A DNA stretch of 41,252 nt from Nanobdellota archaeon (GCA_038046345.1 JBBSWJ010000020.1:14425-55676), one strand, 5' to 3'. Counted from the stretch's first letter, positions 4,824 through 33,735 are shown. A program made the numbers and translations. The notes: generated from the sequence alone by a model not told the origin.

Positions 4824-5232
4824 CCCCTGTTTTTCATATGGAAATAAAAAAAATAAGATTTTATCCACCCCTCACACCATCATTTCCTGTGGAATAAAAT
4901 AATGAAAGATTTTCGGTAATTATGAATATTTTCTATTTTTGTTGAATTTTTTAATTAGTTATATAAAATCTTTTTAATAAGTATGATAATAACCTAAATT
5001 TAAAATGTAGTTATAGCCTGTAAGAACAGTTTATTTGATAGTTTAGGATAAATTTTTATTAATTTTATTTTATAAGCTTTTCTATGTTATTGTATAATAA
5101 TCTATCTTAATTTTTTAGTAATTAATTATTGTTATTTCTTCAAATGAAATGATGGTGTTAATAATCATAAAATATGAAAATCTTTCAATTTTTTTGAATA
5201 TTTTTCGGTTCCACAGGAAGTGTAGGTGGGGG
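4824..5232. other. Replication origin (oriC) with inverted ORB elements flanking an AT-rich unwinding region
   Basis: Minus-strand ORB-like TTCCATATGAAAAACAGGGG (4824-4843) and TTCCACAGGAAATGATGGTGTGAGGGG (4868-4894); plus-strand TTCAAATGAAATGATGGTGT (5139-5158) and GTTCCACAGGAAGTGTAGGTGGGGG (5208-5232); very AT-rich between; directly upstream of cdc6. Confidence 0.9.
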
Positions 5233-5274
5233 ATCATAGTAATCCTTAAATAAATCATAAAAGAAATTACTCAT

Positions 5275-6483
5275 ATGTTAAAAAAGGGGTTAAAAACATT
5301 CTTTGAGGATTATTTAGAAAAAGAGCCATTATTCATTAACAAAAAAGCATTACAAATGAGTTATACCCCTAAATATATTCCACATAGAGAAGAACAAATA
5401 GAAGCTGTTGCAAGTATACTAGCACCAAGCTTAAGAGGAGAAAGGCCAAGTAATATTTTTATTTATGGTAAGACAGGAACTGGAAAGAGTCTTACTATAA
5501 CTTATGTAACTCAAAATATTAAAGAAATAGCTCAAAAAAATAAAACACCCCTAAGGATAATCTATCTAAATTGTAAATTAAAAAGAGTGGCTGACACTGA
5601 GTATAGAATAATAGCTCAATTAACAAGAGAGTTTGGAGAACAAGTACCAGCAACAGGATTACCAACAGATGAAATATATAAATTATTTATTCAGGCATTA
5701 CAAAGAGAAAATAAGAATGTTATAATAATCTTAGATGAAATAGACCAATTAGTAAAAAAAACAGGCGATGAAATATTATATAATCTTACAAGATTAAATG
5801 GTGAATTAGAAAATACCCAAATAAGCATTATAGGCATAAGCAATGACCTATTATTTACAGATAATATTGATCCAAGAATAAAATCAAGTCTTAGCGAAGA
5901 AGAATTAGTGTTTCCACCATATAATGCATTACAATTACAAAGTATATTAAAACAAAGATCAAAATTAGCATTTAAAGAATCAATAGTAAAAGAGGGAGTT
6001 ATAGAAAAATGTTCTGCATATGCTGCAAGAGAACATGGAGATGCAAGAAGAGCTCTTGATTTATTGAGAGTAGCAGGAGAAATAGCAGAAAGAAAGGGAG
6101 CAGTAGAAATAACAACAAAACATATAGACGATGCAGAAGAAAAAATAGAAAGAGATAGAGTTGTAGACATAATTAATACTCAACCAAAACAAGTAAAGTT
6201 GACATTGTATAGCATATTTACAGTTAGCATTGAAAATAAGGGACCAATATTCACAGGAGATATATATGAACTTTACAAAGAAGCGTGTTATAAAACAGGA
6301 GTTAAACCATTAACACAGAGAAGAGTATCAGATATTATAGCCGAGTTAGATATGCTTGGAATAATTAATGCTAAAGTGATTAGCAAGGGAAGATATGGCA
6401 GAACAAGAGAAATAGGTCTTGCTATACCGCAAACAAGTATACCCAATATCAATAATTCATTAAAAGAAAGTCTTGCTTTATAG
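5275..6483 (+). CDS. cdc6: Orc1/Cdc6 replication initiator
   Basis: Walker A GKTGTGKS, Walker B LDEID, GDARRALDLLR, C-terminal wH with GRYGRT. Confidence 0.98.
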   Translation: MLKKGLKTFFEDYLEKEPLFINKKALQMSYTPKYIPHREEQIEAVASILAPSLRGERPSNIFIYGKTGTGKSLTITYVTQNIKEIAQKNKTPLRIIYLNCKLKRVADTEYRIIAQLTREFGEQVPATGLPTDEIYKLFIQALQRENKNVIIILDEIDQLVKKTGDEILYNLTRLNGELENTQISIIGISNDLLFTDNIDPRIKSSLSEEELVFPPYNALQLQSILKQRSKLAFKESIVKEGVIEKCSAYAAREHGDARRALDLLRVAGEIAERKGAVEITTKHIDDAEEKIERDRVVDIINTQPKQVKLTLYSIFTVSIENKGPIFTGDIYELYKEACYKTGVKPLTQRRVSDIIAELDMLGIINAKVISKGRYGRTREIGLAIPQTSIPNINNSLKESLAL

Positions 6484-6492
6484 GGGTAAAAA

Positions 6493-8136
6493 ATGACAAA
6501 TGAACTAGTTCAATACTTTGTAGAGAATGATTTTTTATTAAGCCCTGAAATCATTGATTTAATTAAAGATAAAAAAGAGTTTGTGGATTTAGTTAAGAAA
6601 TTTATAAAAAACAATGAAAAACTATTAGTATTAAATGATGATATTTATAATAATCTAACTCAGATGCATCAATTAATCGACTTTAATTGGAGTGAGTTTG
6701 AAAAAAGCAGATCTTATTTTGAAAAAAATAGCGATGAAAAAATTTATAGTACCTTTGTTGATATCTTATCATACAATATTGAGAAGAAAAAAACAAAACA
6801 AATTGATAAAATATTAGAAGAAATAAAACATGAACCAACAGAAGAATTTCTTTTAAAAGAAGATAATTTAAGATCAAATGTTATGATACTTAATTCATGG
6901 GACTTAGACGTAGGAAAGAGGACAGTGCAAGATTTTGTTAAACATTTTAGAGCAAGATACAATCAATTAAAAAAAATACTTGAATGCAGACCAGAATTAC
7001 AAAACTGCATAAGTATTAATAGATTGTATAATAAAAAAGATAAAGAACAAGTTGCAGTAATAGCAATGGTTGCAGATAAGTCTATAACTAAAAATGGAAA
7101 TATTTTAATTACTCTAGAAGACCTAACAGGAAAAACAAAATTACTTATTAGCAAAAATAACCCTATATTTAGTATAGGGAAAGATATTACTGAAGATGAG
7201 GTAATAGGGGTTATAGGCATAACAGGGGATAATATTATCTTTGCCAATACAATATTTCAACCTGATATACCCACAACAAAAGAATTGAAAAAATGCCCAG
7301 AGGAAGTATATGCAGGATTTATTAGTGATATCCACTTTGGAAGCAAAAAATTCCTGAAAGAAGATTTTTTAAGAATGGTAGAATGGATTAATGGAAACAC
7401 AGGCAATAACCAACAAAAAAGCATTTCAAAAAGATTAAAATATATCTTTATAATTGGTGATGTAGTAGACGGTGTTGGGATATATCCTGACCAAGATAAA
7501 GAATTAGAGATTAAGGATATAACACAGCAATATTCACTTGCAGCTGAATATCTGGATAAAATAAGAAAGGATATAAATATAATTTTATGTCCAGGACAAC
7601 ATGACGCTGTTAGGATATCAGAACCACAACCCAGCTTAAATAATGAGTACACCAAAAGTCTAAATAAAATTTCTAATCTTAAATTAGTAAGCAACCCAGC
7701 ATTAATAAACATTCATGCAAGTGAAGATTTTCCTGGTTTTGATGTGCTAATTTATCATGGAGCAAGCTACCATTATTATAATAATAATATTGATAGCTTA
7801 AGGCAATCAGGAGCTCAAAATAATCCAACTTTAGTCATAAAATACTTACTAAAAAGAAGGCATTTAGCACCAACACACGGATCATCATTGTATAGCCCTC
7901 AAACTGAAAAGGATGCAATGGTAATAGAGAAAATACCCGATATATTTGCCAGTGGTGATTCACATAGATGTGAAACAGCAATGTATAATAATATCAGCAT
8001 AATAGGGTCTAGCTGTTTTCAAGCAAAGACAGCATTTCAGGAGAAAGTAGGAAATAATCCCAACCCCTCAAGATTACCAATAATAAATCTCAAGACACGA
8101 GAGATAAAAATACTAAACTTCAGTGAGGAACAATGA
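6493..8136 (+). CDS. polB: DNA polymerase D small (exonuclease) subunit DP1
   Basis: OB fold plus phosphoesterase motifs SDIHFGS, GDVVDG, PGQHDA, YHG, RRHLAPTHG. Confidence 0.96.
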   Translation: MTNELVQYFVENDFLLSPEIIDLIKDKKEFVDLVKKFIKNNEKLLVLNDDIYNNLTQMHQLIDFNWSEFEKSRSYFEKNSDEKIYSTFVDILSYNIEKKKTKQIDKILEEIKHEPTEEFLLKEDNLRSNVMILNSWDLDVGKRTVQDFVKHFRARYNQLKKILECRPELQNCISINRLYNKKDKEQVAVIAMVADKSITKNGNILITLEDLTGKTKLLISKNNPIFSIGKDITEDEVIGVIGITGDNIIFANTIFQPDIPTTKELKKCPEEVYAGFISDIHFGSKKFLKEDFLRMVEWINGNTGNNQQKSISKRLKYIFIIGDVVDGVGIYPDQDKELEIKDITQQYSLAAEYLDKIRKDINIILCPGQHDAVRISEPQPSLNNEYTKSLNKISNLKLVSNPALINIHASEDFPGFDVLIYHGASYHYYNNNIDSLRQSGAQNNPTLVIKYLLKRRHLAPTHGSSLYSPQTEKDAMVIEKIPDIFASGDSHRCETAMYNNISIIGSSCFQAKTAFQEKVGNNPNPSRLPIINLKTREIKILNFSEEQ

Positions 8137-11597: not shown

Positions 11598-11598
11598 T

Positions 11599-12780
11599 CT
11601 ATATAAAAAATGAAAGAACAGGCAGTAGTAAGCATCCCATTAAATGAGATTTCTTAATTTTTGCATACGAACAAAGTACACCTATAGCAGAAGCTACAAT
11701 AACAATTAAAATTCCTAAATAACCAGAAATCCATAACACCAAAATTAGCAATAGGGATATGATAATCTTACTTAACTTGTTATAATCAACTCGGTGGACG
11801 ATACGTATAAAGAGTTTAGTAATAAATGGAGTTAAAAGAACATTTATTCCACCAGCAATTAAAGCCGCAGAAAAAAATAAAAGCACTGTGGATGTAGGCA
11901 TGGTATGAATAAGACGGGTTATAGCAATGATACTGCCATTGCGGGCTTTTTCAATGGTTACCCACGCAATAATTGCAATAACCATAATCATTGTGTTGAT
12001 CATACCAACCATCAGGATGTATTCTTCTTTTTTGTTGTTTTTTCCTAAAGTGGATAGTGTTGCTGCTTGAGCAGGACCAAGGCCAGGCATTAATCCAGTA
12101 AATATTGATGCAAAAGTTGCTTTGATTATAGCAGAGTATGGTCTTTGAATCTTAGGGAAGGATATCTTTTGCTTTGGAATTAATGTTTTTTGGTTAATGC
12201 TGGTGTATAACACACTAATGCCGAATAGTCCAGAAAATAATGGGAATAATCCTTCTCTGACTGGGAGCTTAAAAACAATAAATCCTAAAGTACCAGATAA
12301 TAAAATTATAACTACTGCCCATAAACGGTTTCGTTCTAAGTAAACTAATGCCCCTAATGCGAATAGGATGATAAAGACAATATTTTTTTGGATTATTGGA
12401 TAAAATAGCGGGATTGTTAGATACAAGAGGGGGGATAGTAGTGTTATGATTATTAATCCTGTGAGGCTTCCAATAATAGACAGGATTACTGCTTCATATC
12501 CCAAACCTTTAGCAAGGAGTTGATGCGCTGGAAATACTACCAACGCCGTGTCATCAGTTGCTGCACCTAAAAAAACTGATGGGATGAAATCAATAAAGGT
12601 GTGGGTAATTGACATTGAGATTATAAATATGCTTATTGATAGAGGAGTTACTTGTTTGAATAAGCTTAGATGTGATAATATAAGAACAGCAACTAAATTG
12701 ATATGTATCCCTGGGGTTATACCCGTAAATATCCCTGCAATAATTCCAATTATGATTGCTATCATTAATTCAAATAACAT
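11599..12780 (-). CDS. TctA-like tripartite tricarboxylate transporter permease (DUF112)
   Basis: Polytopic; GIFTGITPGIHINL, THTFIDFIPSVFLGA, GLMPGLGPAQA, KARNG motifs. Confidence 0.88.
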   Translation of the reverse strand: MLFELMIAIIIGIIAGIFTGITPGIHINLVAVLILSHLSLFKQVTPLSISIFIISMSITHTFIDFIPSVFLGAATDDTALVVFPAHQLLAKGLGYEAVILSIIGSLTGLIIITLLSPLLYLTIPLFYPIIQKNIVFIILFALGALVYLERNRLWAVVIILLSGTLGFIVFKLPVREGLFPLFSGLFGISVLYTSINQKTLIPKQKISFPKIQRPYSAIIKATFASIFTGLMPGLGPAQAATLSTLGKNNKKEEYILMVGMINTMIMVIAIIAWVTIEKARNGSIIAITRLIHTMPTSTVLLFFSAALIAGGINVLLTPFITKLFIRIVHRVDYNKLSKIIISLLLILVLWISGYLGILIVIVASAIGVLCSYAKIKKSHLMGCLLLPVLSFFI

Positions 12781-12863
12781 GGGCTATCTGAAATTATTGT
12801 CTTTATATTGTTTAATGATGGAATATTGAAAATATTACAACTTAAGCCAATGTTTCTGATACA

Positions 12864-13154
12864 TTAGTCACATCTTTGTAACGTGATCTCGATTGTTGAT
12901 ACTCTTACTGATTTTCCTTCTTTATTTTTAAATTCTTCACTATTAACATTAATGTTTTTTATCTCTATAGAATTTTCAAGAAATCTTTTAGTAGCTACTT
13001 CTGCTACGTCTACACATCGTGAGATAAATTTACCCCTCCCTTTTATAATTACTTCACCAGCGTTTTGCGTTGTAAATTGCATTACAACTCCAGTTACGTA
13101 ATTCATGAATGGTTTTGGTCCAATAAATATTGTATGATCATTCTCTTCAGCCAT
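12864..13154 (-). CDS. albA: Chromatin protein Alba
   Basis: IFIGPKPFMNYV, IKGRGKFISRCVDVAE, VSTIEI; SD AGGAG. Confidence 0.95.
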   Translation of the reverse strand: MAEENDHTIFIGPKPFMNYVTGVVMQFTTQNAGEVIIKGRGKFISRCVDVAEVATKRFLENSIEIKNINVNSEEFKNKEGKSVRVSTIEITLQRCD

Positions 13155-13167
13155 ATAATCTCCTTAA

Positions 13168-16686: not shown

Positions 16687-16689
16687 ATC

Positions 16690-17214
16690 CTAAAACACCT
16701 TTAAATATCCCTTTAAGATCATTCCGTTAATTATGTTATTTTTTAGTTCTGAGCTAAGCCGTGAAAAATTTTTTTCAAAGAATAAGCTTATTTTTCTGTT
16801 GAGTTTTTTTTCATAAGATGATAGATTAAACTTTTTTTCTGGGGATTGTATAAACAAATCAATATCACTTTCTTCTATGTCGTCTCCATTTGAGCTGGAA
16901 CCAAATAATACTATTGTATCTGGTTGGCAAGAATCGTTGAGAAAGTCTAGTAAACCGGACTGTTTGAGTCTAAGCATTATGTTAGTTTTTTTATATAATC
17001 TAAAAAGTTCATTATCTCTGTTTGATCTATAAGTAGGATAGATATCTTTTTTCTCTTTTATTATTAACCCTTCTTTGATGAGAGCATTTAAATGATTTAT
17101 TACAGAGGGCTGAGTTATTTTTGTTCTTCTTGATATCTCCCTCATATGAAAATCTTTGGTGGGATAGTCAAAAAATTCTAGCAGTATTTTGTAACGGGTA
17201 TATTTTTGTATCAT
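16690..17214 (-). CDS. wHTH plus minimal nucleotidyltransferase (MNT) antitoxin
   Basis: FHMREISRRTKITQPSV HTH; LFGSSSNGDDIEESDIDL; immediately upstream of the HEPN gene. Confidence 0.9.
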   Translation of the reverse strand: MIQKYTRYKILLEFFDYPTKDFHMREISRRTKITQPSVINHLNALIKEGLIIKEKKDIYPTYRSNRDNELFRLYKKTNIMLRLKQSGLLDFLNDSCQPDTIVLFGSSSNGDDIEESDIDLFIQSPEKKFNLSSYEKKLNRKISLFFEKNFSRLSSELKNNIINGMILKGYLKVF

Positions 17215-17682: not shown

Positions 17683-19645
17683 TCCAAGAAGCGGACAAGT
17701 TACATTATTTGTTATTATTGGGATTATATTAGTGTTACTTTTAGGTTTAGTTTGGTATTATCAGAGCGGGATAATACAAGCTCTTAAGGGGGAGATAACA
17801 CAAGAAGAATTGTTCCGGCAAAATGTTGATACACTAAATGGATACGTAAAGACATGCTTATCTTATTCCAGCACTGAAGGAATAAACCTAATAGGATTAC
17901 AAGGTGGATACATAAGCTTGCTTAATGATCCAATCGGGGTAAGTGAAAGTAATGTACTATCTAATTCTCTAACAGTTGTACCTGGTTTAGATGTAGCTTA
18001 CTGGTATTATGAAACTGCAAATGGCATTCAAAAAACGCAACTGCCATCAAAAGAGTTCATGGAAGAAGAACTTGCAAATTATATTGAAGAAGATATTGAT
18101 GGATGCTTAGGGGGGTTTGTTGGGTTTGAGATTTTAGAGATAGAAGACCGAGAAAAAGAAGTTACTGTTAGGATAAACGATGAAACTGTAGACATTAAAA
18201 TGTATTATCCGCTCAAGATAGAACAAGAAGAGGCTATTGGCAGACTCAAAGAGTTTGAGATAGTTGTTCCAATACCGTTAGGGAAACTATATGGAACTGC
18301 TGTATCATTATTTGAAAAAGAAAACACCGAAACATTCTTAGAAGATATCACCCTGGACCAATTTATCGTTTATGAAGAATTGCCATATTCTGGAATAGAT
18401 CTTGAGTGCAGCCCTAAAGTATGGTTGCAAGAAAAAGTTTTCGGTGATCTAAAAAAAATACTTAGCACAAATATAGCACATTTGGTGGTTAAAGGAAGTA
18501 ATTACAAGAGTTCGAGAGATAAAAAATACTTTGAAGTAGACGATATAAAAGTAAGCAGTGATTCAACCGTACAATTTTTGTTTAGTGAGGGGTGGCCGCT
18601 GCTTATAGATGTGAATCCAGATGAACAAGTACTAAAGGGAGAAAGTTATAATGATAATCTTCTTGGAAGGTTTATCACTCAATTCTTCTGCTTAAATTAT
18701 TATAATTTTGTTTATGATTTAAAGTACCCTATATTAATTAGCATAACTGATGAAAAAACAGAGTATTTATTTCAATATGCGACACAAGTGATCATTCAAA
18801 AAAATCAACCAAGGGAAAGCAAGATAACAATAAATTACTTAGATGGAAAAGTAAGCCCTGTGTGCGATCATTATGTTACCCCATTAACAATAAATGTACA
18901 AGGATACTCTACTGAAGGTAGTTTAGTCTCATTAGATAATGCAGAGATAAGCTTGCAATGTGTTGGCACTAGCTGTGAGCTAGGAAGCACTACATTAGGT
19001 AAATTTAATGGGAACGCTCCGCAATGTGTAAATGCAAATGTAGTTGTAACACATGAAAACTATCAGCAAGAAAACATAATCCTAACAACAGTAGAAGAAC
19101 AAACACTAACGGTGCTACTGGAACCAAAAAAAGAGTTAATGCTTGATTTAAGGTTAATAAGGGCGGAAGAGGGGGGAACAAGAGGATTGTTAAAAGACGA
19201 GTTTGCATTAGTACAGTTTATTCATGAAAACAACGAGTACGCAACAAGTGTGATATATCCTGAACAAAGGTCTGTAACATTAATACCTGGAAGGTATGAG
19301 GTTAGAACAGTAATAATGATGAGTGGAAGACCAATAACATTGCAAGGTGATACAATAAAAGAATGCATTGATGTGCCAGAAACAGGCGTATTAGGATTCT
19401 TTGGGCTAACCAAGAAAAAATGCACAGAAATAAATTTAGATGGAGCAACTTTTGATGCTATAACAGCTGGCGGCGCAAACTTTGGATTTGAGTTAAGCAG
19501 GGATCAGCTTATTAACAATGAACAAATAACCTTATTTTCAGTGAGAAATACAGAACCAAGGAGTATACTTGAGTTACAAGAAATGTACAAAACAATACAA
19601 GAAAATTCCCAGCTTGAAGAGTTTAGGGGGCCAATATTAAAATGA
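17657..19645 (+). CDS. Large surface protein with class III (prepilin-like) signal peptide
   Basis: RSG/QVTLFVIIGIILVLLLGLVW; Cys pairs; C-terminal beta-sandwich-like region; SD GAGGGA. Confidence 0.8.
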   Translation: MKGRRIRSNPRSGQVTLFVIIGIILVLLLGLVWYYQSGIIQALKGEITQEELFRQNVDTLNGYVKTCLSYSSTEGINLIGLQGGYISLLNDPIGVSESNVLSNSLTVVPGLDVAYWYYETANGIQKTQLPSKEFMEEELANYIEEDIDGCLGGFVGFEILEIEDREKEVTVRINDETVDIKMYYPLKIEQEEAIGRLKEFEIVVPIPLGKLYGTAVSLFEKENTETFLEDITLDQFIVYEELPYSGIDLECSPKVWLQEKVFGDLKKILSTNIAHLVVKGSNYKSSRDKKYFEVDDIKVSSDSTVQFLFSEGWPLLIDVNPDEQVLKGESYNDNLLGRFITQFFCLNYYNFVYDLKYPILISITDEKTEYLFQYATQVIIQKNQPRESKITINYLDGKVSPVCDHYVTPLTINVQGYSTEGSLVSLDNAEISLQCVGTSCELGSTTLGKFNGNAPQCVNANVVVTHENYQQENIILTTVEEQTLTVLLEPKKELMLDLRLIRAEEGGTRGLLKDEFALVQFIHENNEYATSVIYPEQRSVTLIPGRYEVRTVIMMSGRPITLQGDTIKECIDVPETGVLGFFGLTKKKCTEINLDGATFDAITAGGANFGFELSRDQLINNEQITLFSVRNTEPRSILELQEMYKTIQENSQLEEFRGPILK

Positions 19646-22600
19646 GACAAAAAATAATGGCATTATTTGTAATAATACTCTTTGTAGCTAGTACTCCTGC
19701 ATATGCGCTTGATATAATAAATCAACAAGATCTTTTTAGCGAAGAAGAGCTTGGTGAAGATATTATTATTAATGTTGATGACTATCAGCCAAAAATAATA
19801 AGAAGCAGCTTACTAGAAGAAAAAGATGTAAATGTTTATGCAACACTTAAAGGGATACCTTCAAATCCAACAATATCAATTTCAAAGATTGATGACATTG
19901 ACCTTAAAGCAACAAAGATAAGCACACCTGATGGAAAAGAAGTAAAACTAGGAAACATAAGATATGTAAAGCCTGGAAGAGCAAACTTTGGGTTAAAAGA
20001 TGCTGCTTATGAATTATTTAATGGACGATATACCGGAGAGGGCATTGGAGGTTTAGAATATGCTCAGCAACTAAATTATGATAATCTTGGTTATGTTGTT
20101 GTACCAATTAAAAGAATACCAAAAGAAGCTGATGTGCCTTCTCAGATAGATATCACAATGGAGGGAAGAATAAGATTTGATGTTAGCTCGGATCTTGGAG
20201 CAGGACCAACAACTGATGTTCTACGCCCAATGACTAATTCAGAATGGAATAAAGTAAGAGAATCACATAAATTTTATGGCGGATACTTGCAAGTTACCAG
20301 TATTGAGCCAAGCACTATCTCAAGACTATTTAATGGAGCTCCAATCGCTCAATCTCAGCAGGTTCTAGAAAAAGATGCGTTAATACCCCTAGAAAACTAT
20401 AAAGCTAAAATTGTTTTATACAATAATCAGTTAAACCCAATAATTCCAGGGATAGGATTTGAAGATGATAATACAGGCACTGGAAATTCAGATTTACAAA
20501 TTACAGCCGGGACTTTAGTTTTAAAACCAGGAGAAACATCAAGAAGAACATTTAGAACAGATTCAGCAATAGAAAGCGCACAATTAGGTTCTCCAAAAAC
20601 ATTGTTTAATAGATTTAGAGTAAGACTTGAAGAGATAAGATCTCAAAGACCAAGCATAAGAGCATTTGTACAAAGCAGTGATCAGCTACTTCCAGTTTTA
20701 GTTACTATAAGCGAAGGAGATAGAGTGCATAGTAATAGTGATTGGGTATTTGATGGAGTAGAGCATGGTGTGGGTAATAATGTTGGTTCTTATAAGGTGG
20801 TATTTAAGAAGTTTAGAATTGGAGATAACATTGAAACAAAAATTGTTGAATTGGATGATCAAGTTGTTGGAAACGAATTAAAATTAAGTTTAGGCTTAGA
20901 TATATCCTTAACAAGAGGGACTGAGCAACATACAGGTTTGTTGAGAAGAGCGATAGAAGAATATGAAACATTTTTAGTTGGACTAGAAAGTGTTAACATG
21001 GACTCGCTTGACCCAAATGATAAAGAAACACTTGAATCTGAGCAAGAAGAAGCAATGTATCAGCTTGGTAGCTTATCTATTTTATTGGGGGAAACTGATA
21101 AAGGATTGAATGAACTTAAAGATTATTTAAAGATGTTTCCAGCTGGTACGCATGTTAGTCAGATTGATAGGTTTATTTCTGGATATGAAAATGTTAACAC
21201 TCAAAATGCAGCAAGAACAATCTCTTTTGATGAAGGGAGTAATGAAATGTCTACAACTATAACTGTTTTGAGTGATCCTATTGAGTTTGAAGGCGGACGG
21301 AGATCAATCGCGAAAATCAGGGTGGGCGATAATATCGGGGTGTATAATCAAGGGGATACATTATGTGTTGATAAGGAGTGTACTAACCAAGAATGGAAAG
21401 TAAGTGAGATCGGACAGAATCAAGTAGTATTAAAGAAGGGTGATACGCGATCACTCTTACTTACAGGAAGCTCCACAGAGTTAGGCGAGAGTATTACTGC
21501 TGAACTTGTAAGCGCAAATCCAGAGTTAGAAGCAGTAATAACTATCCTTCCAGTACCAGAAAGAGCATATAGCAGCATAAATTTTGATATGCATATACCA
21601 ATAGAATCAAGAGCGCTGGAATTACCCCTTTTTACAGGATCACTTGATAAAGAAATAAACAAAACGCAGGAATTAATAAAAAAACTTGATGGCGTTATAA
21701 AAAACGTAGAAAAAGTACATAATGTCTGGAGCAAATTATGTTTAACAACATTTTTAGTGCTTTGGTCTAAAAATCTATTTAGTCTAGATAAAGGCGCCGC
21801 TAGAAAAAGAATAAATCCAATATGGAAAGAAAGATGGAGCAAGGATGAATCAGCACAAAATAGTGGCGTAACATTTGATAACTATTTATTACAAGATGAG
21901 AATAAAGAAGCATACGAAAACGATTTAACCAATGCGGAAAGAATCATTGGAGAAATTGATAATAAAAAGTATCTAGAAAGTAGTTTGAGTTTAACAGATG
22001 CAGAAAAGAAAAAATATGATTCACTGTTGCAAGAAAGATATTTTGCATTAGAACTTAGTAAGACTACACCAGAGTACGTAGCCAAGTTCATAGAAAAAGA
22101 GCTTGAAGTACAAAACATAAAAGTTTTATCAAAAATAAAAAACCTTGAAACACAGCCATACTCAGAAATTGCAAATGATATAGAAAGGATATGGTGGAAA
22201 ATGGATCCTGTGGAGTGGGCAAGAAATAAAGAAGGATTCATAAGAACTTATTATTTAACAGAAACAGCAAAAACCATGAAAACTTTTTTGAATGAAGGAG
22301 AAAATAAAATTTTAGGTTATTATCCTTCAGATAATGAGGGGATTAAAGATGAAGTAACAAACGCCTTGGGAGGATTATTAACAGCAAGTCCTACAGAACA
22401 AGTTAGCCAGGACACAATCCCAATTACATCAATAATAAAGAAAGATGCTCTTTTTTACTTTAGTGCTAACAACGGGGAGATGTACCCCTTGGTAGATTCT
22501 AATGCTGCGGATGACCCCATACGCTCTACACTATCACAAGATCAATTGGATGGAAATATGGATGTGTACTATGTGATCGGTCAAGAGCGGAAAACAGCAA

Positions 22601-25056
22601 GAATCAGTAATGACATAAAAGAAGAAACACATTTGCCAAAAGTTACAACATATCCTAAAGGCCATAGACAAGCAGGACACATAAAACAAGTAAGTGTTGA
22701 TGCATACCACTATATTGAATTTGAATATTCATCAAGCGGAAAAATAAACAAGAAAACAGTGTATCGGAGAGGCATACCTAATGAAGATTTAGGCGGTGGC
22801 ACGCTTGTAGGAGAACTGGATAATTCATTGTTGTTCTCATTCAGACAAAGTAAAGACGGGAAACTTGAAAAATTAGCAAACGATTTAAGCAAAGCAGAGA
22901 GTTGTTTAAACAAGCTAAATAGAAAATTAGAATCAAGCTTTATCCCTGCAAGTATATTCTCAAGTCCATTCGTAGGAAACAGTGTAAGCTGCAGTGGCTT
23001 AGGAGAGTACACAGTAACAAAAGAAAAAGTGATAAAATCTGAAGCGGAATGCAGTGATTTTATGGATCCACAAGAATGCAGAATACTCTTTAATGCATGT
23101 GATCCAGTAATATGCCCTTCAAGCAGATGTAATCTAGGTGGGAAATGGCAAGTAGAAAGAGTAACAGAAACAGGACTAGTGGGATCGATAGCATTATGCG
23201 CACCAAACTTTCCAGAAGTGGTAGTACCAGTATGCATAACTGGAATAAATGCAGGATTACAAAACATAAAATCAATACTTGAAGGTTATAATCAATGTTT
23301 AGTTGCACATAAAAATGAAGGAACATCAGTAGGAATTTGTGATAGCATAAGAAATGTGTACATATGTGAGATATTATGGAAAGAAGGATTAGCAATATTT
23401 AATGTAAAAGGAGGATTCTTAGGATTAATATCAGAAAAATTATTTAAGATAGCTGGCGGGGGAGAGTATTCCAGTTTTGAAGATCACTTTGATCAAAGTG
23501 TAGCAGGATTACAATATTTCACACAAGACTATGCAAAAAATGTATTTGCAAGTTATGATGGAGGAAGCCTTGACGAGATAGGAACACAAATATGCAAATC
23601 AGCAATATACGGAAAAGCACCAGGCGTAGGAAACTTCTTTAATGAAATACAAAAACCTGAAAGCCCACCACAATTCTTTGCTTTCTTTGATGAAGTACCA
23701 TACACAGACTTGTTGAATGTGCCTCAAAGCCAGTATGAAGTATTTTACCACATATATGCAGGCCAAAATGAAGATGTAAGGTATAGCGTCTATTTACAAG
23801 AAATTGACGGGGCTGGACGTTTAATTGGCAATTATAAATTTTTAAAAAATAACCAGCCATTAACACTTGGACAGAGCGTTGACGAAAATGAGGACTTTGT
23901 AGCAAGAGCAGGATATAATCAATTGTGTGTAAGCATACTAACAAGAAGATATGGCAGAATAGTAGAATGCGGATTTGGAGAAGTGAGCACTAACTTTGCA
24001 ATAGATTACTTAACCGAACAATATGCTTTAAGCGAAATCAATAAAAAAGTAGACACAGAAGAAGAATGCGTAACAGACAGAACAAGAATAACATCACTAA
24101 GTGCGCCCTCAACAATTTCTGATGTTAATCTATTACAAGCAGGAGTTGGAAGTTTTTCAACAGGACTAACCCAAACAGGAATAGTGAGAAAATGTGCAGG
24201 AGTAGATCCAAATATTGGGTTTAAAGATGGGATACAGAGATGGGTAGGAGTTGGAACTTGTGGTAATGATAAACAAGGAAGAGATCTAGGAATATGCTGG
24301 TTGTATAAACCTGCTGCAGAAAGAGCATTAGAGCAAGAATATAGCAAACAATTAGTTGATGAAGGTTTAGAAAAAGTTACTGAAGAATTAAAAGAAGAAG
24401 GATTAGGAGTAAGTGGATTAAGCAGGGATGAGGTTGATGAGATTAAGAGAGGATTTAGAAATATTGTTAGATTACCTGGTGGTAGTAGCTGTGATAATGC
24501 ATATCCAATTGCAATAGGTTATTATGAAGAAATAAGAGCCAATGCGATACTGGAATGGCAGAGAGTAGAAGCAAATTATCTAATAGCTGAGGCATTAGTC
24601 AAAGAGTATAAATGTTTGAGTAAACAAAAGATTGATGCAGCTACTGCTCCCCCGGGCAATGCGGGGCCATCACCGGCACCGACTGATGCAATTGAGCGTA
24701 GTAATGTTAAAGCTGATAAATGTATAAATCTCAGTTTGGCACCTTCATCTACTGAAAGCACTGTTGAACTTAAGGTTAAGGAAAATGATAAGATCATATT
24801 TACAAGTCAAAGTAGAGGCTACATTTATGTTGTAAAGGGGATTGATGCAAGAATAATAGAATTAGACTCAAAGGAGAGGGGTGCTTTTGATGTTATCATA
24901 CCTAAAGATAATACAGCAAGGATTGAGTTGAGTGATGATGCTGTTGATGATATATTATTAAGATATGAATCAGACGGAAAGATTTTTTTAGTCCTAGGTG
25001 ATAGCGGTCCATTTGCTGAGGGGTTTAAGATTGATGTGAAGCTCTGTCCTAACTAG
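19642..25056 (+). CDS. Giant exported Cys-rich protein (1804 aa as read; about 1951 aa if the 3' frameshift is repaired)
   Basis: Sec-type leader ending PAYA; TPR-like AMYQLG...YLKMFPAG; Cys cluster CSDFMDPQEC...CDPVICPSSRC; ATGA overlap with the upstream gene. Confidence 0.85.
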   Translation: MRQKIMALFVIILFVASTPAYALDIINQQDLFSEEELGEDIIINVDDYQPKIIRSSLLEEKDVNVYATLKGIPSNPTISISKIDDIDLKATKISTPDGKEVKLGNIRYVKPGRANFGLKDAAYELFNGRYTGEGIGGLEYAQQLNYDNLGYVVVPIKRIPKEADVPSQIDITMEGRIRFDVSSDLGAGPTTDVLRPMTNSEWNKVRESHKFYGGYLQVTSIEPSTISRLFNGAPIAQSQQVLEKDALIPLENYKAKIVLYNNQLNPIIPGIGFEDDNTGTGNSDLQITAGTLVLKPGETSRRTFRTDSAIESAQLGSPKTLFNRFRVRLEEIRSQRPSIRAFVQSSDQLLPVLVTISEGDRVHSNSDWVFDGVEHGVGNNVGSYKVVFKKFRIGDNIETKIVELDDQVVGNELKLSLGLDISLTRGTEQHTGLLRRAIEEYETFLVGLESVNMDSLDPNDKETLESEQEEAMYQLGSLSILLGETDKGLNELKDYLKMFPAGTHVSQIDRFISGYENVNTQNAARTISFDEGSNEMSTTITVLSDPIEFEGGRRSIAKIRVGDNIGVYNQGDTLCVDKECTNQEWKVSEIGQNQVVLKKGDTRSLLLTGSSTELGESITAELVSANPELEAVITILPVPERAYSSINFDMHIPIESRALELPLFTGSLDKEINKTQELIKKLDGVIKNVEKVHNVWSKLCLTTFLVLWSKNLFSLDKGAARKRINPIWKERWSKDESAQNSGVTFDNYLLQDENKEAYENDLTNAERIIGEIDNKKYLESSLSLTDAEKKKYDSLLQERYFALELSKTTPEYVAKFIEKELEVQNIKVLSKIKNLETQPYSEIANDIERIWWKMDPVEWARNKEGFIRTYYLTETAKTMKTFLNEGENKILGYYPSDNEGIKDEVTNALGGLLTASPTEQVSQDTIPITSIIKKDALFYFSANNGEMYPLVDSNAADDPIRSTLSQDQLDGNMDVYYVIGQERKTARISNDIKEETHLPKVTTYPKGHRQAGHIKQVSVDAYHYIEFEYSSSGKINKKTVYRRGIPNEDLGGGTLVGELDNSLLFSFRQSKDGKLEKLANDLSKAESCLNKLNRKLESSFIPASIFSSPFVGNSVSCSGLGEYTVTKEKVIKSEAECSDFMDPQECRILFNACDPVICPSSRCNLGGKWQVERVTETGLVGSIALCAPNFPEVVVPVCITGINAGLQNIKSILEGYNQCLVAHKNEGTSVGICDSIRNVYICEILWKEGLAIFNVKGGFLGLISEKLFKIAGGGEYSSFEDHFDQSVAGLQYFTQDYAKNVFASYDGGSLDEIGTQICKSAIYGKAPGVGNFFNEIQKPESPPQFFAFFDEVPYTDLLNVPQSQYEVFYHIYAGQNEDVRYSVYLQEIDGAGRLIGNYKFLKNNQPLTLGQSVDENEDFVARAGYNQLCVSILTRRYGRIVECGFGEVSTNFAIDYLTEQYALSEINKKVDTEEECVTDRTRITSLSAPSTISDVNLLQAGVGSFSTGLTQTGIVRKCAGVDPNIGFKDGIQRWVGVGTCGNDKQGRDLGICWLYKPAAERALEQEYSKQLVDEGLEKVTEELKEEGLGVSGLSRDEVDEIKRGFRNIVRLPGGSSCDNAYPIAIGYYEEIRANAILEWQRVEANYLIAEALVKEYKCLSKQKIDAATAPPGNAGPSPAPTDAIERSNVKADKCINLSLAPSSTESTVELKVKENDKIIFTSQSRGYIYVVKGIDARIIELDSKERGAFDVIIPKDNTARIELSDDAVDDILLRYESDGKIFLVLGDSGPFAEGFKIDVKLCPN

Positions 25057-27763: not shown

Positions 27764-27795
27764 TTAAAAAGGAAAGTAAACTCTAAGTTAGAAGC

Positions 27796-29166: not shown

Positions 29167-29235
29167 AATGGTTGCTATATTCTTAAAGAGGAATAGCATA
29201 GAAATGTATATAAAATAATTCTTGTTACTAACCTA

Positions 29236-30222
29236 ATGAAAAAAGTGGTTTTAATGGTTATTCTTATAATTTTATTTGTTTTGTTTACTGCACAGAAATG
29301 TGACATAACCAAATTACCATGGGGACAATCAACTCCGAATTCAGGATTACCAAATCCAACAGCAAGCCGTGGAATACAAATAGAACCATTTGGAAAAATA
29401 TTTGTGTTTAATGAGCTAAAAGAAGGTAGAAGATATAACTTTGGGGTTATATTAAGAAATTATGACAAGGAGGATATACAAGGAACAGTAACAATAACTG
29501 ATGAGCTATCTGCTAGTCAGGTTGGAGGAATAGACGATGAGTTATCAACTAGCTTTTATCTTGAAGGTTTAGGCGAACATTTTAGCGAGAATATAAAACT
29601 GGAAGATATAAATCAAGAAGAATATTTTGGCAATGAAAATGAATTTTATTACAGGCTAGGTGATGGTCTAGAGGGGGGGGTAACAGCTAATTTTTATGCA
29701 ACAGTGAAGTATAATCATGTTCTTAATGCATTCTCCCAAGTGTGTTTACCATTAAAAAGTATAAAGGAGAGTAGCTGTGCGCAAGTGCAGAGATTAGATT
29801 TTAAACCAATAATCAATACTAAAACAAGAGAGCAGTTGGATGTTGGAAATAGTTATAGGGCGCCAATAAGTGTCCAAAATGCAGTTTTAACGTTTACAGC
29901 CGTGCAGGGCGGGGCAGTAGAAGCGATATTATCATTAAAACTGGACAATGTAGGCGGCGGCAGTGCAGACATAACTCATTTTGCTGTAGATCTTGCAGGC
30001 AAAGAGATGAAGTGTAATCCAAGATTACCAAGCTTTACTGAAGAACAGACATATTTAAAAACAAAACTGATAGATGTAGAATGTGAGTGGGATGTTACGT
30101 CTCCGGAGGCTACCAGAGAAGGATTAACGTATGTTACTATTCCTTTCAGTCTCGAAGCAGGTTATGAGTATGAGCTAAGATCTAATGTTAGGTCTTTAAG
30201 GATAATGCCAGAGGAAGAATAA
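29236..30222 (+). CDS. Exported or membrane-anchored beta-rich protein
   Basis: 328 aa; MKKVVLMVILIILFVLFTAQKC leader (possible lipobox-like Cys); Ig-like alternating pattern. Confidence 0.75.
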   Translation: MKKVVLMVILIILFVLFTAQKCDITKLPWGQSTPNSGLPNPTASRGIQIEPFGKIFVFNELKEGRRYNFGVILRNYDKEDIQGTVTITDELSASQVGGIDDELSTSFYLEGLGEHFSENIKLEDINQEEYFGNENEFYYRLGDGLEGGVTANFYATVKYNHVLNAFSQVCLPLKSIKESSCAQVQRLDFKPIINTKTREQLDVGNSYRAPISVQNAVLTFTAVQGGAVEAILSLKLDNVGGGSADITHFAVDLAGKEMKCNPRLPSFTEEQTYLKTKLIDVECEWDVTSPEATREGLTYVTIPFSLEAGYEYELRSNVRSLRIMPEEE

Positions 30223-31199
30223 TGCAGCTGAACTATGAATCAATAATACAAAAAATAATTGAGATTACTGGGAAGAATAGAGCGGAAGTTGAGTCTAAGA
30301 TTCAACAAAAAACAAAAGAACTTTCTGAGCTAGTTAGCAGGGACGGAGCTGCACATATTGTGGCTAATGAGATGGGAGTGAAGTTATACGACCTTTTTTC
30401 AAAAACTAGCTATAAGGTTAAAGAATTAAAAGCTGGGCTGCAAAATGTTGAACTTGTGTCAAAAATTGTGGAGAAGTATGAAACCAGGACCTTTAAGAAA
30501 AATGAAAGAACAGGAAGGGTTGCATCAATGTTAGTTGGTGATGAAACAGGAATGGTAAGAGTAGTTATATGGGATGAAGTGCTTATCAATAAAAGTGATG
30601 AGATAAATGTGGGGGATATTATAAAATTACAAGGTGGATATGTTAAAGAAAATAATGGATTTAGAGAGGTACATGCAGGAAGTAAAAGTATTTTAGAAAT
30701 TAATCCTGTTAATGAGAGTGTAGGGGAAGTTACCGGTAAACATGAGAGGAGTGTAACCAGCAAGAGTTTAAATGCTCTTGAAGTAAATGATTTTGCTGAA
30801 GTAAGAGGGACTATTGTACAGTTGTTTGATCCTAAGTTTTATCCAGCATGCCCTGAATGCAATAAAAAAGTACAAGATGGTAAATGTGTGAGCCATGGGG
30901 TGGTAAAGTTTAACTTTGTGCCAATACTTAATTTTGTTTTAGACGACGGGAGTGATAACATCAGGGTTGTATGCTTTAGGGATGTTGTAGGAGAGGTTAT
31001 TGGCGTTGAGAAAGAAAAGGTGCAAGGTTTTATGGATAATCCTGCTTCATTTCAAGATTATAAGAATAAGATACTTGGCAGACAGTTTGTGCTAAATGGC
31101 AAGGTAACAAAAAACATGATGTTTGATAGGTTAGAATTTACAGCTAGTAAAGCCCAAGAATTAAATGTGCAAGAAGCTTTGCAGGATATTATTTCTTAG
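30222..31199 (+). CDS. rpa: Replication protein A (OB folds plus Zn finger)
   Basis: LVSRDGAAHIVANE, GRVASMLVGDETG..RVVIWD, CPECNKK..CVSHG, LDDGSDNIRVVCF. Confidence 0.92.
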   Translation: MQLNYESIIQKIIEITGKNRAEVESKIQQKTKELSELVSRDGAAHIVANEMGVKLYDLFSKTSYKVKELKAGLQNVELVSKIVEKYETRTFKKNERTGRVASMLVGDETGMVRVVIWDEVLINKSDEINVGDIIKLQGGYVKENNGFREVHAGSKSILEINPVNESVGEVTGKHERSVTSKSLNALEVNDFAEVRGTIVQLFDPKFYPACPECNKKVQDGKCVSHGVVKFNFVPILNFVLDDGSDNIRVVCFRDVVGEVIGVEKEKVQGFMDNPASFQDYKNKILGRQFVLNGKVTKNMMFDRLEFTASKAQELNVQEALQDIIS

Positions 31200-31592
31200 T
31201 TAGTAATTAATAATTTTTATCTCTGGGATGTTTTGAAAGTGTTTAACATTTTTTGTAATTATCTGGTTGACACCATTAGCTAAGAATATACCTGCAATTG
31301 TACAATCAAACTTGCCTATACTTTTTCCTTTTTTTGTAAGTGAAGTTGAGACCTGTGATGCTCTTTTACATGCTTCACAAGTAAGTTGGAAATTTAGGAA
31401 AGTATTAAAGAAGGTATCATAATAGTGTATTTCGTTTTCGAAGTTTTTATTTGAAAAGTCTATCCCAAACATTAATTCTAGATAACTAAGTTGAGTTACT
31501 GTAAGTGGCTCTTTTAGTCCCAATAACTTTTTTTTAATTGCTTCATTTCCTTTAAATATGTCAATAATTGCTGATGTATCTAAGCCTATCAT
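31200..31592 (-). CDS. vapC: PIN-domain VapC toxin
   Basis: LDTSAIID, SYLEL, DCTIAG, ITKNVKHF. Confidence 0.93.
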   Translation of the reverse strand: MIGLDTSAIIDIFKGNEAIKKKLLGLKEPLTVTQLSYLELMFGIDFSNKNFENEIHYYDTFFNTFLNFQLTCEACKRASQVSTSLTKKGKSIGKFDCTIAGIFLANGVNQIITKNVKHFQNIPEIKIINY

Positions 31593-31801
31593 GATAATTT
31601 CTCTTCAAAGGATTCTCTTAATCCTTTTATTGAATCTTCTTTACTGCCCCAATCAAGTTCTTTGAGTACCCCAAAGAACTGTAGTATACTTTGTTCCTGC
31701 TTCTTAAATTCTAAGATTGCTTCTGAAAAACTCTTGTCTCCTTTAATGGAATTGAGGAACTCATACGCTTCTCGTTTTATGGATATGTTTATGCTGGTCA
31801 T
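31589..31801 (-). CDS. vapB: VapB-type antitoxin (DUF217-like)
   Basis: TSINISIKREAYEFL..KGDKSFSEAI; ATGA overlap with vapC. Confidence 0.88.
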   Translation of the reverse strand: MTSINISIKREAYEFLNSIKGDKSFSEAILEFKKQEQSILQFFGVLKELDWGSKEDSIKGLRESFEEKLS

Positions 31802-31895
31802 TGGTACTCATAGTATGTACATATATATAAGCGTTTTTATTCTATAAGCTGGTTGATTAGCGTCATCTATTTTTATTAGATTTCGGCAATTATTA

Positions 31896-31908
31896 TGAAA
31901 ATATTTCA
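31896..31908. promoter_or_regulatory. Palindromic site TGAAA-ATA-TTTCA
   Basis: Exact palindrome; overlaps the stop codon of the 90-aa ORF. Function is inferred. Confidence 0.55.
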
Positions 31909-32178
31909 GCTTATAAGAGTTAATCTTACTAATTTACCCAAGCTGTTGTAAGTTGCCGTGTAACTACGTTTGACATAGTCTATTAAATCAGAATGATCAT
32001 CTGTGTAAGTAATAACTGGCTTTTTTAGATAAGTTATTCCCAAATATGCGCATAAATTATTCATGAATGAATGTCTTCGTCTGGTGACTTGAAAATCGTA
32101 GTCTAATGCTGATAGTAATCCTTCTTCGAGGTTTATTTTAGCTAGTTTGTTAAAGTGTTCTTTTGTGTTGACTTTCAT
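31906..32178 (-). CDS. Hypothetical protein
   Basis: 90-aa ORF with TATA-like TATATTAA about 25 bp upstream; no recognised motif. Confidence 0.5.
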   Translation of the reverse strand: MKVNTKEHFNKLAKINLEEGLLSALDYDFQVTRRRHSFMNNLCAYLGITYLKKPVITYTDDHSDLIDYVKRSYTATYNSLGKLVRLTLIS

Positions 32179-32225
32179 ACCTGTGTAAATATTATTATTC
32201 TTAATATACCTTATTTCTAAAACTA

Positions 32226-32259
32226 TGAAAATGTTTCAGGTTATATTGAAAAGATTTCA
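32226..32259. promoter_or_regulatory. Tandem palindromic sites TGAAA-ATG-TTTCA and TGAAA-AGA-TTTCA, 21 bp apart
   Basis: Two exact copies between divergent promoters, both followed by G like the 31896 copy. Function is inferred. Confidence 0.65.
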
Positions 32260-32335
32260 GTTTTTTTGAGTTATTATAAAAAATAATTATGAAACTTTAT
32301 GTAATGCTTATAAGTAATATTAGCGCATTAAACGT

Positions 32336-32803
32336 ATGATGTATCAAACTCACCGGTTGATTGGTGTTTTATTAGGGCTTGTTATTTATGTAAACTTTAA
32401 TTTAGATCATAAGATATTATTCTTTACTGCTATTTTGTTAGGTAGCATATTTGTTGACATCGACGAACCGAGGAGTTTTATAGGGAGAAAATTAAAACTA
32501 TTGTCCTGGCCGATCAAGTGGATGTTTGGGCACAGAGGAATATTTCATAGTATGTTTATGGCGTTATTGTTATCAGCTTTGATATACCATTTTTTGGAGG
32601 AATATTCTGGTATAGGTTTTTTTGTAGGTTATTTAGGGCATATCATAGCAGATGGTATAACCCTGAGCGGTGTTAAAATTTTTTATCCACTGAGTAAAGT
32701 AAGTTTAAAAGGGTTTATCAGAACTGGAGGGATGTTAGAAAAATTATTGTTTTTTGTATTATTAATTGTAACCATATGGACTGTTATAAAATTCGTGTTA
32801 TAA
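32336..32803 (+). CDS. YdjM/DUF457-family membrane metal-dependent hydrolase
   Basis: QTHRLIG, FVDIDEPRS, GHRGIFHS, GHIIADGIT, several TM helices. Confidence 0.9.
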   Translation: MMYQTHRLIGVLLGLVIYVNFNLDHKILFFTAILLGSIFVDIDEPRSFIGRKLKLLSWPIKWMFGHRGIFHSMFMALLLSALIYHFLEEYSGIGFFVGYLGHIIADGITLSGVKIFYPLSKVSLKGFIRTGGMLEKLLFFVLLIVTIWTVIKFVL

Positions 32804-32957
32804 GCGGTTATTGTGCGAGGTGTATTGTGATTTTGAATATATCCAAAAGCCCTTCAAAAATAGCCCCAAAACTTTTAAAAAGTATGTTTATACTTTGAGA
32901 TCATTATGCTGGTGAAACTAGCATCAAATACTGGATGTAATAATCCTAATTAAAACG

Positions 32958-33545
32958 ATGAAGGACTACACTCAATTTTCTTTTATTTTTATTGGTGATA
33001 CACATGGATTCTTAGATGATTTTAGTAAACAAAAAGAAATCATTAAAAAAACACAACCAGAAATAGTACTCTCAGAGCAATTACAGCATATTAACCTAGA
33101 AAGCCCAGAAGACTATGAGAAAATTCAACAAGAAAAAAAAATTTCCAACATGGTTGCTTACGAAGAAGTAGAAAAACTTATAGCCCTCTGCAAAGAACAG
33201 AGCATAAAACTCAAAGGATTTGATCTAGAAACCTTTGGGTTTGATAAAACCCTTCAAGAAGTAATCCAAGGAAAAAGACTACCAACGCATGAAGAAGAAC
33301 AAAAAATAGAAGAAATTGTTAAAAAAAGAACACAGCATCATCTCAAACTTCTCAAAGATAATGAAAACACTTCACAAAAACCAATAATTGTAATACTAGG
33401 AACATTCCACCTCATAGACGAGGGGGAAATAGTCAAAACTGTAAAAAACTCACTGCTCATACGGCCAACAGACAAAGAAGGAAAATTACTTTTAGAACCA
33501 CCAGAAACCATAGAAGGAATAACCTACACAGAAACAACTAGATAG
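32958..33545 (+). CDS. Hypothetical protein, possibly TraB/ChaN/Tiki-like alpha/beta fold
   Basis: FIFIGDTHG, EIVLSEQ, IIVILGTFHL; fold assignment is tentative. Confidence 0.55.
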   Translation: MKDYTQFSFIFIGDTHGFLDDFSKQKEIIKKTQPEIVLSEQLQHINLESPEDYEKIQQEKKISNMVAYEEVEKLIALCKEQSIKLKGFDLETFGFDKTLQEVIQGKRLPTHEEEQKIEEIVKKRTQHHLKLLKDNENTSQKPIIVILGTFHLIDEGEIVKTVKNSLLIRPTDKEGKLLLEPPETIEGITYTETTR

Positions 33546-33624
33546 AATGCTATATCTTCACGTCGTCATGTCAAATGAGAGTATCATTTATAAGTAATAT
33601 TCTCTTTAAAGTTGATTAACTCCT

Positions 33625-33735
33625 TGAAATAAAAACCGAAAGGAAGGGAGAATTAAGTATAAACAAACTGAAAGATATTCAAGAATTCTTCCTAAATATT
33701 ATTTAAGGAGATTATGAAATAAAAACCGAAAGGAA
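33625..33735 (+). repeat. Two exact 21-bp direct repeats TGAAATAAAAACCGAAAGGAA (33625-33645, 33715-33735)
   Basis: Directly readable; period 90 bp; each holds a CC-GAAA-GG mini-hairpin. Confidence 0.92.

Follow-up and report, generated by a model that had tools for sequence, protein, structure and literature searches.

The closest described counterpart of the element studied here is the binding site of FL11 (PH1519 of Pyrococcus sp. OT3), a protein of the Lrp/AsnC family. The FL11 dimer was co-crystallised (PDB 2e1c) on the DNA TGAAA[AAT/ATT]TTTCA, the consensus of its tight natural sites, while in-vitro selection (SELEX) gave CCGAAA-WWW-TTTCGG as its optimum; a duplex with TGAAA binds at 45% of that optimum (PMC2715240). 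We analysed the palindrome TGAAA-N3-TTTCA in a stretch of 41,252 nucleotides from a Nanobdellota archaeon (GCA_038046345.1 JBBSWJ010000020.1:14425-55676; hereafter the window), where it occurs on both sides of the core of the replication origin, oriC, and at several other places. This 13-mer is identical to the 13-bp, 5-3-5 palindrome of FL11, with half-site TGAAA (or CGAAA). The initial annotation of the window had proposed a new operator read by an undescribed regulator, but the 13-mer is the DNA of the FL11 co-crystal (PMC2715240) and the genome encodes one Lrp/AsnC protein. Judging from sequence comparison, the palindrome is likely to be the operator of this sole Lrp/AsnC (feast/famine regulatory protein, FFRP) regulator, acting in the manner of FL11. 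As with FL11, C is preferred at position -1 and sites occur in phased groups. Unlike FL11, the host protein has no site at its own promoter, and the host is a DPANN archaeon with a genome of about 0.8 Mb.

Gene regulation in DPANN archaea is, to our knowledge, almost unstudied. Archaeal activators of the Lrp type (Ptr2 of Methanocaldococcus; LysM and BarR of the Sulfolobales) reportedly bind palindromic sites just upstream of the TFB-recognition element (BRE) and TATA box. The host sites are similar in that they lie 15-19 nt from TATA boxes and in that some are paired. At the origin, the most similar system is ucm, a short element of Sulfolobus oriC1 that is not an origin recognition box (ORB) and that is bound by a non-initiator protein, UBP, which also has many intergenic sites elsewhere (PMC12141716). 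However, UBP is a 111-aa, saddle-shaped β-hairpin monomer and ucm is an 11-bp element inside the DNA-unwinding element (DUE), whereas the host element is a 13-bp palindrome beside the ORB and its candidate binder is an Lrp protein with helix-turn-helix (HTH) and RAM domains. IHF and Fis at oriC of Escherichia coli, an analogy drawn in PMC12141716, are DNA-bending global regulators placed between initiator boxes and the unwinding element; this comparison is functional only, as the system is bacterial and the proteins are unrelated. The initial annotation had taken as precedents the DNA-damage response under Sulfolobus Orc1-2 and the LexA regulation of E. coli ydjM. The hexamer ANTTTC, the Orc1-2 damage-response element (PMC9738581), can be read on one strand of some copies of the palindrome, but the damage element is asymmetric, and the host motif showed neither enrichment at repair genes nor conservation there. 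In our literature search we came across neither an Lrp-family protein described at an origin in archaea nor a DPANN Lrp regulon, and a search for the literal 13-mer written with W codes found nothing.

The host genome (G000; other G-codes denote genomes of the same order) comprises 821 kb in 35 contigs with 34% G+C, and the window sits on contig C20. We use "intergenic" with respect to a gene map of longest open reading frames (ORFs) that we made ourselves, not with a trained gene finder; the map covers 90% of the genome and leaves 10%, or 81.6 kb, as intergenic DNA. The exact pattern TGAAANNNTTTCA occurs four times in the window (5175-5187, 31896-31908, 32226-32238 and 32247-32259). Shuffling predicts 0.29 such copies, and none of 100 shuffles reached four; the initial annotation, which had listed the same four, had estimated about 0.2 by chance. 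On our map all four are intergenic, as had been claimed, with the copy at 31896-31908 overlapping the stop codon of an ORF of 90 aa. Genome-wide there are 10 exact copies, six of which are intergenic where about 0.3 are expected. Because the motif had been picked after the fact, we ranked all 1024 palindromes of the 5-N3-5 type by their abundance in intergenic DNA. This motif ranks first, with five fully intergenic copies against 0.31 expected (p = 2e-5, or ~0.02 after correction for 1024 tests; the runner-up has p = 4e-3). The motif is thus a genuine, non-random intergenic cis-element.

A genome-wide scan against background, as the initial annotation had suggested, finds exact copies at 12-fold higher density in intergenic than in coding DNA. 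For copies with one, two or three mismatches the ratio is just 1.2-1.3-fold, and therefore exact copies are the real signal, while mismatch copies are unacceptable as sites on sequence alone. Within the window, a one-mismatch search returns 14 copies against 7.0 expected. The copies at 4903, 12827 and 33669, which had been highlighted, do exist, but seven others inside genes had gone unlisted, and the class as a whole is not enriched. Relaxed patterns that follow the half-site variation described below are more abundant than expected in the intergenic DNA of the genome: YGAAA-N3-TTTCR has seven copies against about 0.65, and YGNAA-N3-TTNCR has 18 against 6.6 +/- 2.4. Among 30 half-sites, 13 have C at -1 or G at +1 (background 0.155, p = 2.6e-4), which agrees with the SELEX optimum of FL11. 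For the centre of the site we used the FL11-type criterion of an A/T-rich triplet; all-G:C centres abolish binding. The central triplets are ATC, ATA, ATG, AGA and GAT, each with at least two A/T positions and none all G:C, though not strictly WWW.

The sole AsnC_trans_reg match in the genome is an ORF of 158 aa that lies outside the window (G000:C32:5170-5646). Its single Pfam domain scores fall under the curated cut-off. When the sequence was compared to all PDB sequences, however, the best match was FL11 (2cyy, 2e1c; E = 2.5e-10), and a profile of 20 orthologue sequences also found FL11 as the best match (E = 1.3e-20). An AlphaFold2 model of the protein has a predicted local distance difference test (pLDDT) score of 82.8 and consists of three helices, which form an HTH, and then a beta-alpha-beta-beta-alpha-beta domain; the structures that Foldseek ranked highest are those of FL11, its DNA complex 2e1c among them, and of other Lrp/AsnC proteins. 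FL11 is thus the closest solved relative and shares the fold, though the two proteins are ~26% identical. Orthologues of the regulator are present in 118 of 240 genomes of the order, representing 63 of 132 genera.

The contacts of FL11 with its DNA allow a more specific comparison. In FL11, Thr37 and residue 34 specify T at position a of the half-site, Ser36 specifies G at b, His39 or Arg39 reads position c, and Leu24 specifies AA at d/e (PMC2715240). Residues L24/A34/E35/S36/T37/H39 of FL11 align with L21/P31/V32/S33/T34/F36 of the host protein. The Leu, Ser and Thr equivalents of residues 24, 36 and 37 are therefore kept, while Glu35 is replaced by Val and the residue that reads c is changed from His to Phe; the proline at the equivalent of position 34 is also present in Ss-LrpB. 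The arrangement L-P-[V/I/M]-S-T-[F/Y] is kept in 21 of 22 matches (E <= 4.6e-15), even at 34% identity, and the remaining match has T-S for S-T. From these contact residues the predicted half-site is T/C, G, unspecified, A, A. The prediction agrees with the TctA-promoter sites described next, which were derived independently by comparative analysis, and the altered residue 39 corresponds to the variable base c, a position that is free across the order.

The conserved target is the promoter of a gene for a TctA-family membrane transporter (11599..12780, minus strand; Pfam). Its operator-type site at 12827..12839 (reverse complement TGTAATATTTTCA) has one mismatch. The centre of the site precedes the start codon of TctA by 53 nt and the TATA box by 18 nt, the position is identical in G005, the closest relative, and a palindrome at the same position is found in 11-13 other genomes. 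This copy, also listed in the initial annotation, belongs to the TctA promoter. In a comparison of 31 TctA loci across the order, a palindrome of the type YGNAA-N3-TTNCR at -50 to -54, 17-18 nt from the TATA box, was present in 12 genomes with the regulator and two without it, and absent from four with the regulator and 12 without it. The association is significant by Fisher's test (p = 0.0013), a value that ignores shared ancestry, and relatives are not independent samples. Of the 16 genomes that have no such palindrome, most have TctA fused to an operon upstream; among the 14 that do have it, 11 are the sole sampled representatives of their families. Across 13 aligned TctA-promoter sites, two of which fall in upstream coding DNA, positions d/e and their mirrors are invariant, 12 of the 13 have G at b, all have T or C at a, and c is free; the alignment is palindromic at a, b, d and e. 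Throughout the order, TctA shows synteny with cdc6 and polD, and it lies either in an upstream operon or behind its own promoter with the palindrome.

In G005, whose Cdc6 is 81% identical and whose regulator is 65% identical to those of the host, the motif has 14 exact copies, compared with two for a reversed control pattern. Eight of the 14 are intergenic: one is beside the left ORB, one is in the divergent promoter of TctA and an M1 peptidase, one each is upstream of RuBisCO and BolA, two are upstream of LAGLIDADG genes, and two are upstream of small unknown ORFs. Most of these copies are 15-19 nt upstream of a TATA box, and their flanks differ, so they are not copies of one repeat. The host genome has no orthologues of the G005 targets RuBisCO and M1 peptidase. 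Both G005 LAGLIDADG genes with an exact site upstream are free-standing, and one of the sites is 11 nt past the 3' end of a tRNA gene.

At the origin of the host, inverted ORBs flank an AT-rich core, and copies of the motif lie between the ORBs and the core. The left ORB (4865..4894, minus strand) consists of a C-string at 4865-4878 and the dyad TTCCTGTGGAA at 4884-4894, with a second left ORB at 4824-4843; the right ORB (5209..5232, plus strand) consists of the dyad TTCCACAGGAA at 5209-5219 and a G-string at 5220-5232, with a partial ORB at 5136-5158. The initiator gene orc1/cdc6 follows at 5275..6483 (plus strand; Pfam Cdc6_C, Cdc6_lid and AAA), and genes for the PolD subunits are next. On the other side, a PRC-barrel gene lies left of the origin. 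In agreement with the initial annotation, which had described the ORBs correctly, the 13-bp palindrome does not match the ORB/mini-ORB dyad TTCCA-N-TGGAA, whether or not a G-string accompanies the dyad; the ORBs are neighbouring but distinct elements.

Each side of the host origin has one strong and one weak site. On the left, the operator-type site TGAAAGATTTTCG (4903..4915) lies 8 nt from the left ORB dyad, measured from the dyad edge that faces the DUE, and fits YGAAA-N3-TTTCR; counterparts occur at the same position in G005, G030, G031, G096, G083, G071 and G125. Its weak partner TGAATATTTTCTA (4923..4935) is 20 bp away, has three mismatches and is not significant alone. On the right, the exact site TGAAAATCTTTCA (5175..5187) is in reverse complement identical to the 4903 site in 12 of 13 positions. 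Its partner TGAATATTTTTCG (5195..5207) has two mismatches and ends 1 nt from the right ORB dyad; the TTTCGG half of this site is the FL11 SELEX half-site, and it is one of just two intergenic paired sites in the genome. The pairs had been described as spaced by 20-21 bp and including weaker copies at 4923 and 5195, both of which exist with the mismatches just given; the measured spacings, including the pair at 32226 and 32247, are 20, 20 and 21 bp. The two sides of the origin also share a repeat unit of 36 nt (4897-4932 and 5169-5204, 72% identical) that includes the weak 4923 copy.

With at most one mismatch, the motif occurs within 700 nt upstream of cdc6 in G000 and G005 only, among 30 loci. 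A wider association with origins surfaced only after positions a and c were relaxed, whereupon G030 and G031 also proved to have a site, just inside the left ORB. We therefore searched the 240 genomes for an ORB dyad followed, after 4-16 nt, by the relaxed palindrome, which returned 43 matches against 19 for a reversed control. A match was regarded as a true origin when cdc6 was adjacent, a C-string preceded the dyad, and the palindrome was on the side of the unwinding element. Loci were available for 30 of the 43 matches and include seven origins; G030 and G031:C19 are already-known origins, and G195 was fetched separately, so that 33 of the 43 were covered. The true origins among the checked matches are nine (G000, G005, G030, G031, G096, G083, G071, G125 and G195), from six genera and five families. 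Their sites are 7-14 nt inside the ORB on the DUE side, and all nine genomes carry the regulator; the site in G195 is on the same side of its cdc6-proximal ORB as the 5195 site of the host. By chance, ~0.5-1.4 such juxtapositions are expected over roughly 480 left ORBs, a figure that comes from arithmetic on the relaxed intergenic frequency and not from simulation. A site adjacent to an ORB is thus a recurrent association, though one found in a minority of regulator-bearing genomes.

We infer binding, ligand, sign of regulation and any effect on replication as follows. A dimer would read each 13-bp site, with one HTH per half-site (T/C, G, any, A, A), and a higher oligomer would bind cooperatively where two sites are two helical turns apart. 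The promoter sites, at TctA (12827), at the orphan 90-aa ORF (32226) and at several G005 promoters, are 15-19 nt upstream of TATA boxes. Lrp-type activators of archaea have their upstream activating sites at a similar position, so the protein probably modulates how the basal transcription machinery is recruited, and a small molecule, probably an amino acid, would set its effect on that recruitment. At oriC, the protein's place would be between ORB and unwinding element, on a stretch across which the helicase must act. Given this placement, it could, depending on the nutrient state, either gate or help initiation, or else control cdc6. A more far-reaching proposal, which we regard as speculative and somewhat doubtful, is that in this DPANN clade the sole Lrp-type regulator has been recruited to oriC, with operators 1-14 nt from ORBs on the DUE side in nine genomes of five families, and that this nutrient-sensing, DNA-bending oligomer directly gates Orc1-dependent helicase loading or origin melting.

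The three other exact copies in the window are in the interval between the RPA gene and a gene for a YdjM-like membrane protein (32336..32803, plus strand; Pfam). The NucS and RPA genes (30222-31199; Pfam) are followed by vapC and vapB (31200-31801, minus strand; Pfam) and the 90-aa ORF. In many relatives, the start of ydjM coincides with the end of the RPA gene or lies no more than a few bases from it, as in an operon, and this linkage may hint at a DNA-related role of YdjM. Since ydjM directly follows RPA in many relatives, and since the 90-aa ORF has no family or clear homologue, we regard 31200..32335 (minus strand; vapC, vapB and the orphan ORF) as a strain- or lineage-specific insertion. 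The exact site at 31896..31908 is ~100 nt upstream of vapB. The site at 32226..32238 has its centre 54 nt upstream of the start of the 90-aa ORF and 104 nt upstream of ydjM, with the TATA box of the ORF 17 nt away. The site at 32247..32259, 21 bp from the previous one, is likewise upstream of both genes, by 75 nt for the ORF and 83 nt for ydjM. A direct repeat of 22 nt (31894-31915 and 32224-32245), identical in 20 of 22 positions (91%), brackets the 90-aa ORF and exceeds the 13-mer on both sides; it could be the footprint of an insertion or duplication. No motif was found upstream of the ydjM orthologues of any of 24 relatives.

The 90-aa ORF matches no Pfam or PHROG family. Beyond the copy in the window, it has six weak partial matches (E 8e-5 to 9e-3) in 201 sampled genomes of the order, and a set of 5.8 billion proteins contains only its own sequence. 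Its Atlas model (pLDDT 0.46) gave no usable structural match. Five readable contigs with this ORF are 99.9-100% identical to the window, and therefore add no information.

Farther downstream, a one-mismatch copy at 33669..33681 lies upstream of the radA operon, whose radA gene (33988-36186; Pfam) contains an intein with a LAGLIDADG domain. This copy overlaps another conserved leader element, TTCAAGAATTCTT, between two GAAAYAAAAACCGAAAGGA boxes, and has no conserved counterpart in G005; it is probably not an operator site. The leader of the operon, which comprises a 91-aa ORF and radA, spans 33620-33745; its two GAAAYAAAAACCGAAAGGA boxes are ~90 nt apart and conserved in five genomes of three families, and the TTCAAGAATTCTT palindrome between them is common to G000 and G005. 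The leader could be a structured leader or a different operator. In sum, the expectation that the motif would be conserved at orthologous promoters held for the TctA promoter and for oriC of some relatives, but not for radA or ydjM.

The initial annotation had also named three candidate binders, none of which we retain. The 90-aa ORF has no clear homologue, yet the motif is enriched in a genome without that ORF. A winged-HTH (wHTH) gene at 2258-2548 shows no association with the motif: of 14 genomes that have the TctA palindrome, nine carry this gene, as do 13 of the 16 that lack the palindrome. Cdc6 is present in 40 of 41 genomes searched, including motif-less ones, and both Orc1 paralogues are in nearly all. 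The wHTH gene encodes 96 aa with a weak HTH_27 match, and is found in 29 of 41 relatives, usually with cdc6 a few kb away. The second Orc1/Cdc6 paralogue (G000:C31:23652-24581) is ~34% identical to the initiator and present in most relatives; an exact copy of the motif lies 2 kb from it, in coding DNA (C31:21602).

Several observations weigh against the operator of an FL11-like regulator. Three of the six exact intergenic copies of the host lie within 364 bp and two of these share the 22-nt repeat, so they are not independent events. In G005, no conservation was seen for the sites that the host has upstream of ftsY and near top6A/tRNA-Asn. The centres are not strictly A/T (WWW), with GAT/ATC the commonest. 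The promoter of the regulator itself has no site, with nothing better than three mismatches within 220 nt upstream; autoregulation is common in the Lrp/AsnC family, but not obligatory. The orthologues of G004, G006 and G021 share the contact residues, yet only one of 21 exact copies in these genomes is intergenic; in their TctA sites, positions a and c are occupied by other bases. In G008 and G009 a TctA-type palindrome is present and no orthologue was found, in genomes that are 73% and 93% complete, respectively. Finally, strong enrichment of the exact motif is seen just in G000 and G005, though the Lrp orthologue is far more widespread. This last point and the lack of a site at the regulator's own promoter would be expected if another DNA-binding protein of the clade, e.g., a nucleoid-associated protein like Sulfolobus UBP, read the element and the match to the FL11 site were coincidental. 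There is precedent in UBP itself, which was an unexpected small protein on an archaeal origin element and on hundreds of intergenic sites (PMC12141716). However, the positions at which the site is invariant or variable agree with the contact residues that the Lrp protein has kept or changed, and the element and the gene co-occur, so we consider such a protein an unlikely explanation.

The placement of the sites might instead suggest that the second Orc1/Cdc6 paralogue, or the initiator, reads the palindrome as an auxiliary origin element akin to mini-ORBs or to the Orc1-2 damage elements, with the copies away from the origin as secondary Orc1 sites. Orc1 proteins are known to bind outside origins, a paralogue exists, and in nine origins only a short, fixed distance separates the sites from ORBs. 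Yet a 5-3-5 palindrome is unlike the ORB dyad or G-string, the same element is found 17-18 nt from the TATA boxes of unrelated promoters, and it tracks the Lrp-type gene, whereas both paralogues are near-universal; we think this quite improbable. The model in the initial annotation, in which Cdc6, the wHTH protein or the 90-aa ORF runs an SOS-like regulon that links initiation with radA, vapBC and ydjM, seems to us very improbable. It is true that the window is rich in genes of replication and repair (cdc6, PolD, NucS, RPA and RadA), that copies are near cdc6, ydjM and, with one mismatch, radA, that ydjM is co-linear with rpa in relatives, and that the Orc1-2 hexamer mentioned above is readable. 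However, G005 lacks a counterpart of the radA copy, which overlaps the other leader element, one-mismatch copies are not enriched, the ydjM/vapBC cluster is in an insertion, the G005 targets belong to transport and metabolism, and none of the three binders tracks the motif; among motif neighbours in the host and G005 we found no regulon of repair genes. An equally remote prospect is that the element has no regulatory function, and is a chance palindrome that was locally duplicated or forms the ends (recombination sites) of small mobile cassettes. The three clustered copies flank one orphan gene in the insertion, two of them within the direct repeat, and in G005 two LAGLIDADG genes and some small unknown ORFs have copies in front of them, one of these copies coming right after a tRNA gene. 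Against this, the motif is the top palindrome genome-wide, the flanks of the G005 copies differ, the distance to the TATA box is fixed, and position is kept at the TctA promoter over several families and at oriC over five.

A few other genes in the window may be of interest. It contains an Alba gene (Pfam), an ORF of 1804 aa at 19642-25056, and two modules that resemble toxin-antitoxin systems, namely a wHTH-nucleotidyltransferase fusion (16690-17214) and a HEPN/nucleotidyltransferase pair (37680-38995).

The operator of a single Lrp/AsnC regulator, which we favor, replaces an SOS-like model with a known protein family. It offers a testable regulator-operator pair for the whole order, consisting of one small protein, a 13-bp site and a conserved target promoter, that of TctA. 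What matters most is the recurrent placement of sites between the ORB and the unwinding element. If functional, these origin sites would link nutrient sensing to replication initiation in host-dependent archaea. Should the regulator indeed act there, it would constitute a metabolite-to-initiation switch in an archaeon and, after ucm and UBP, a further non-initiator protein built into an archaeal origin.

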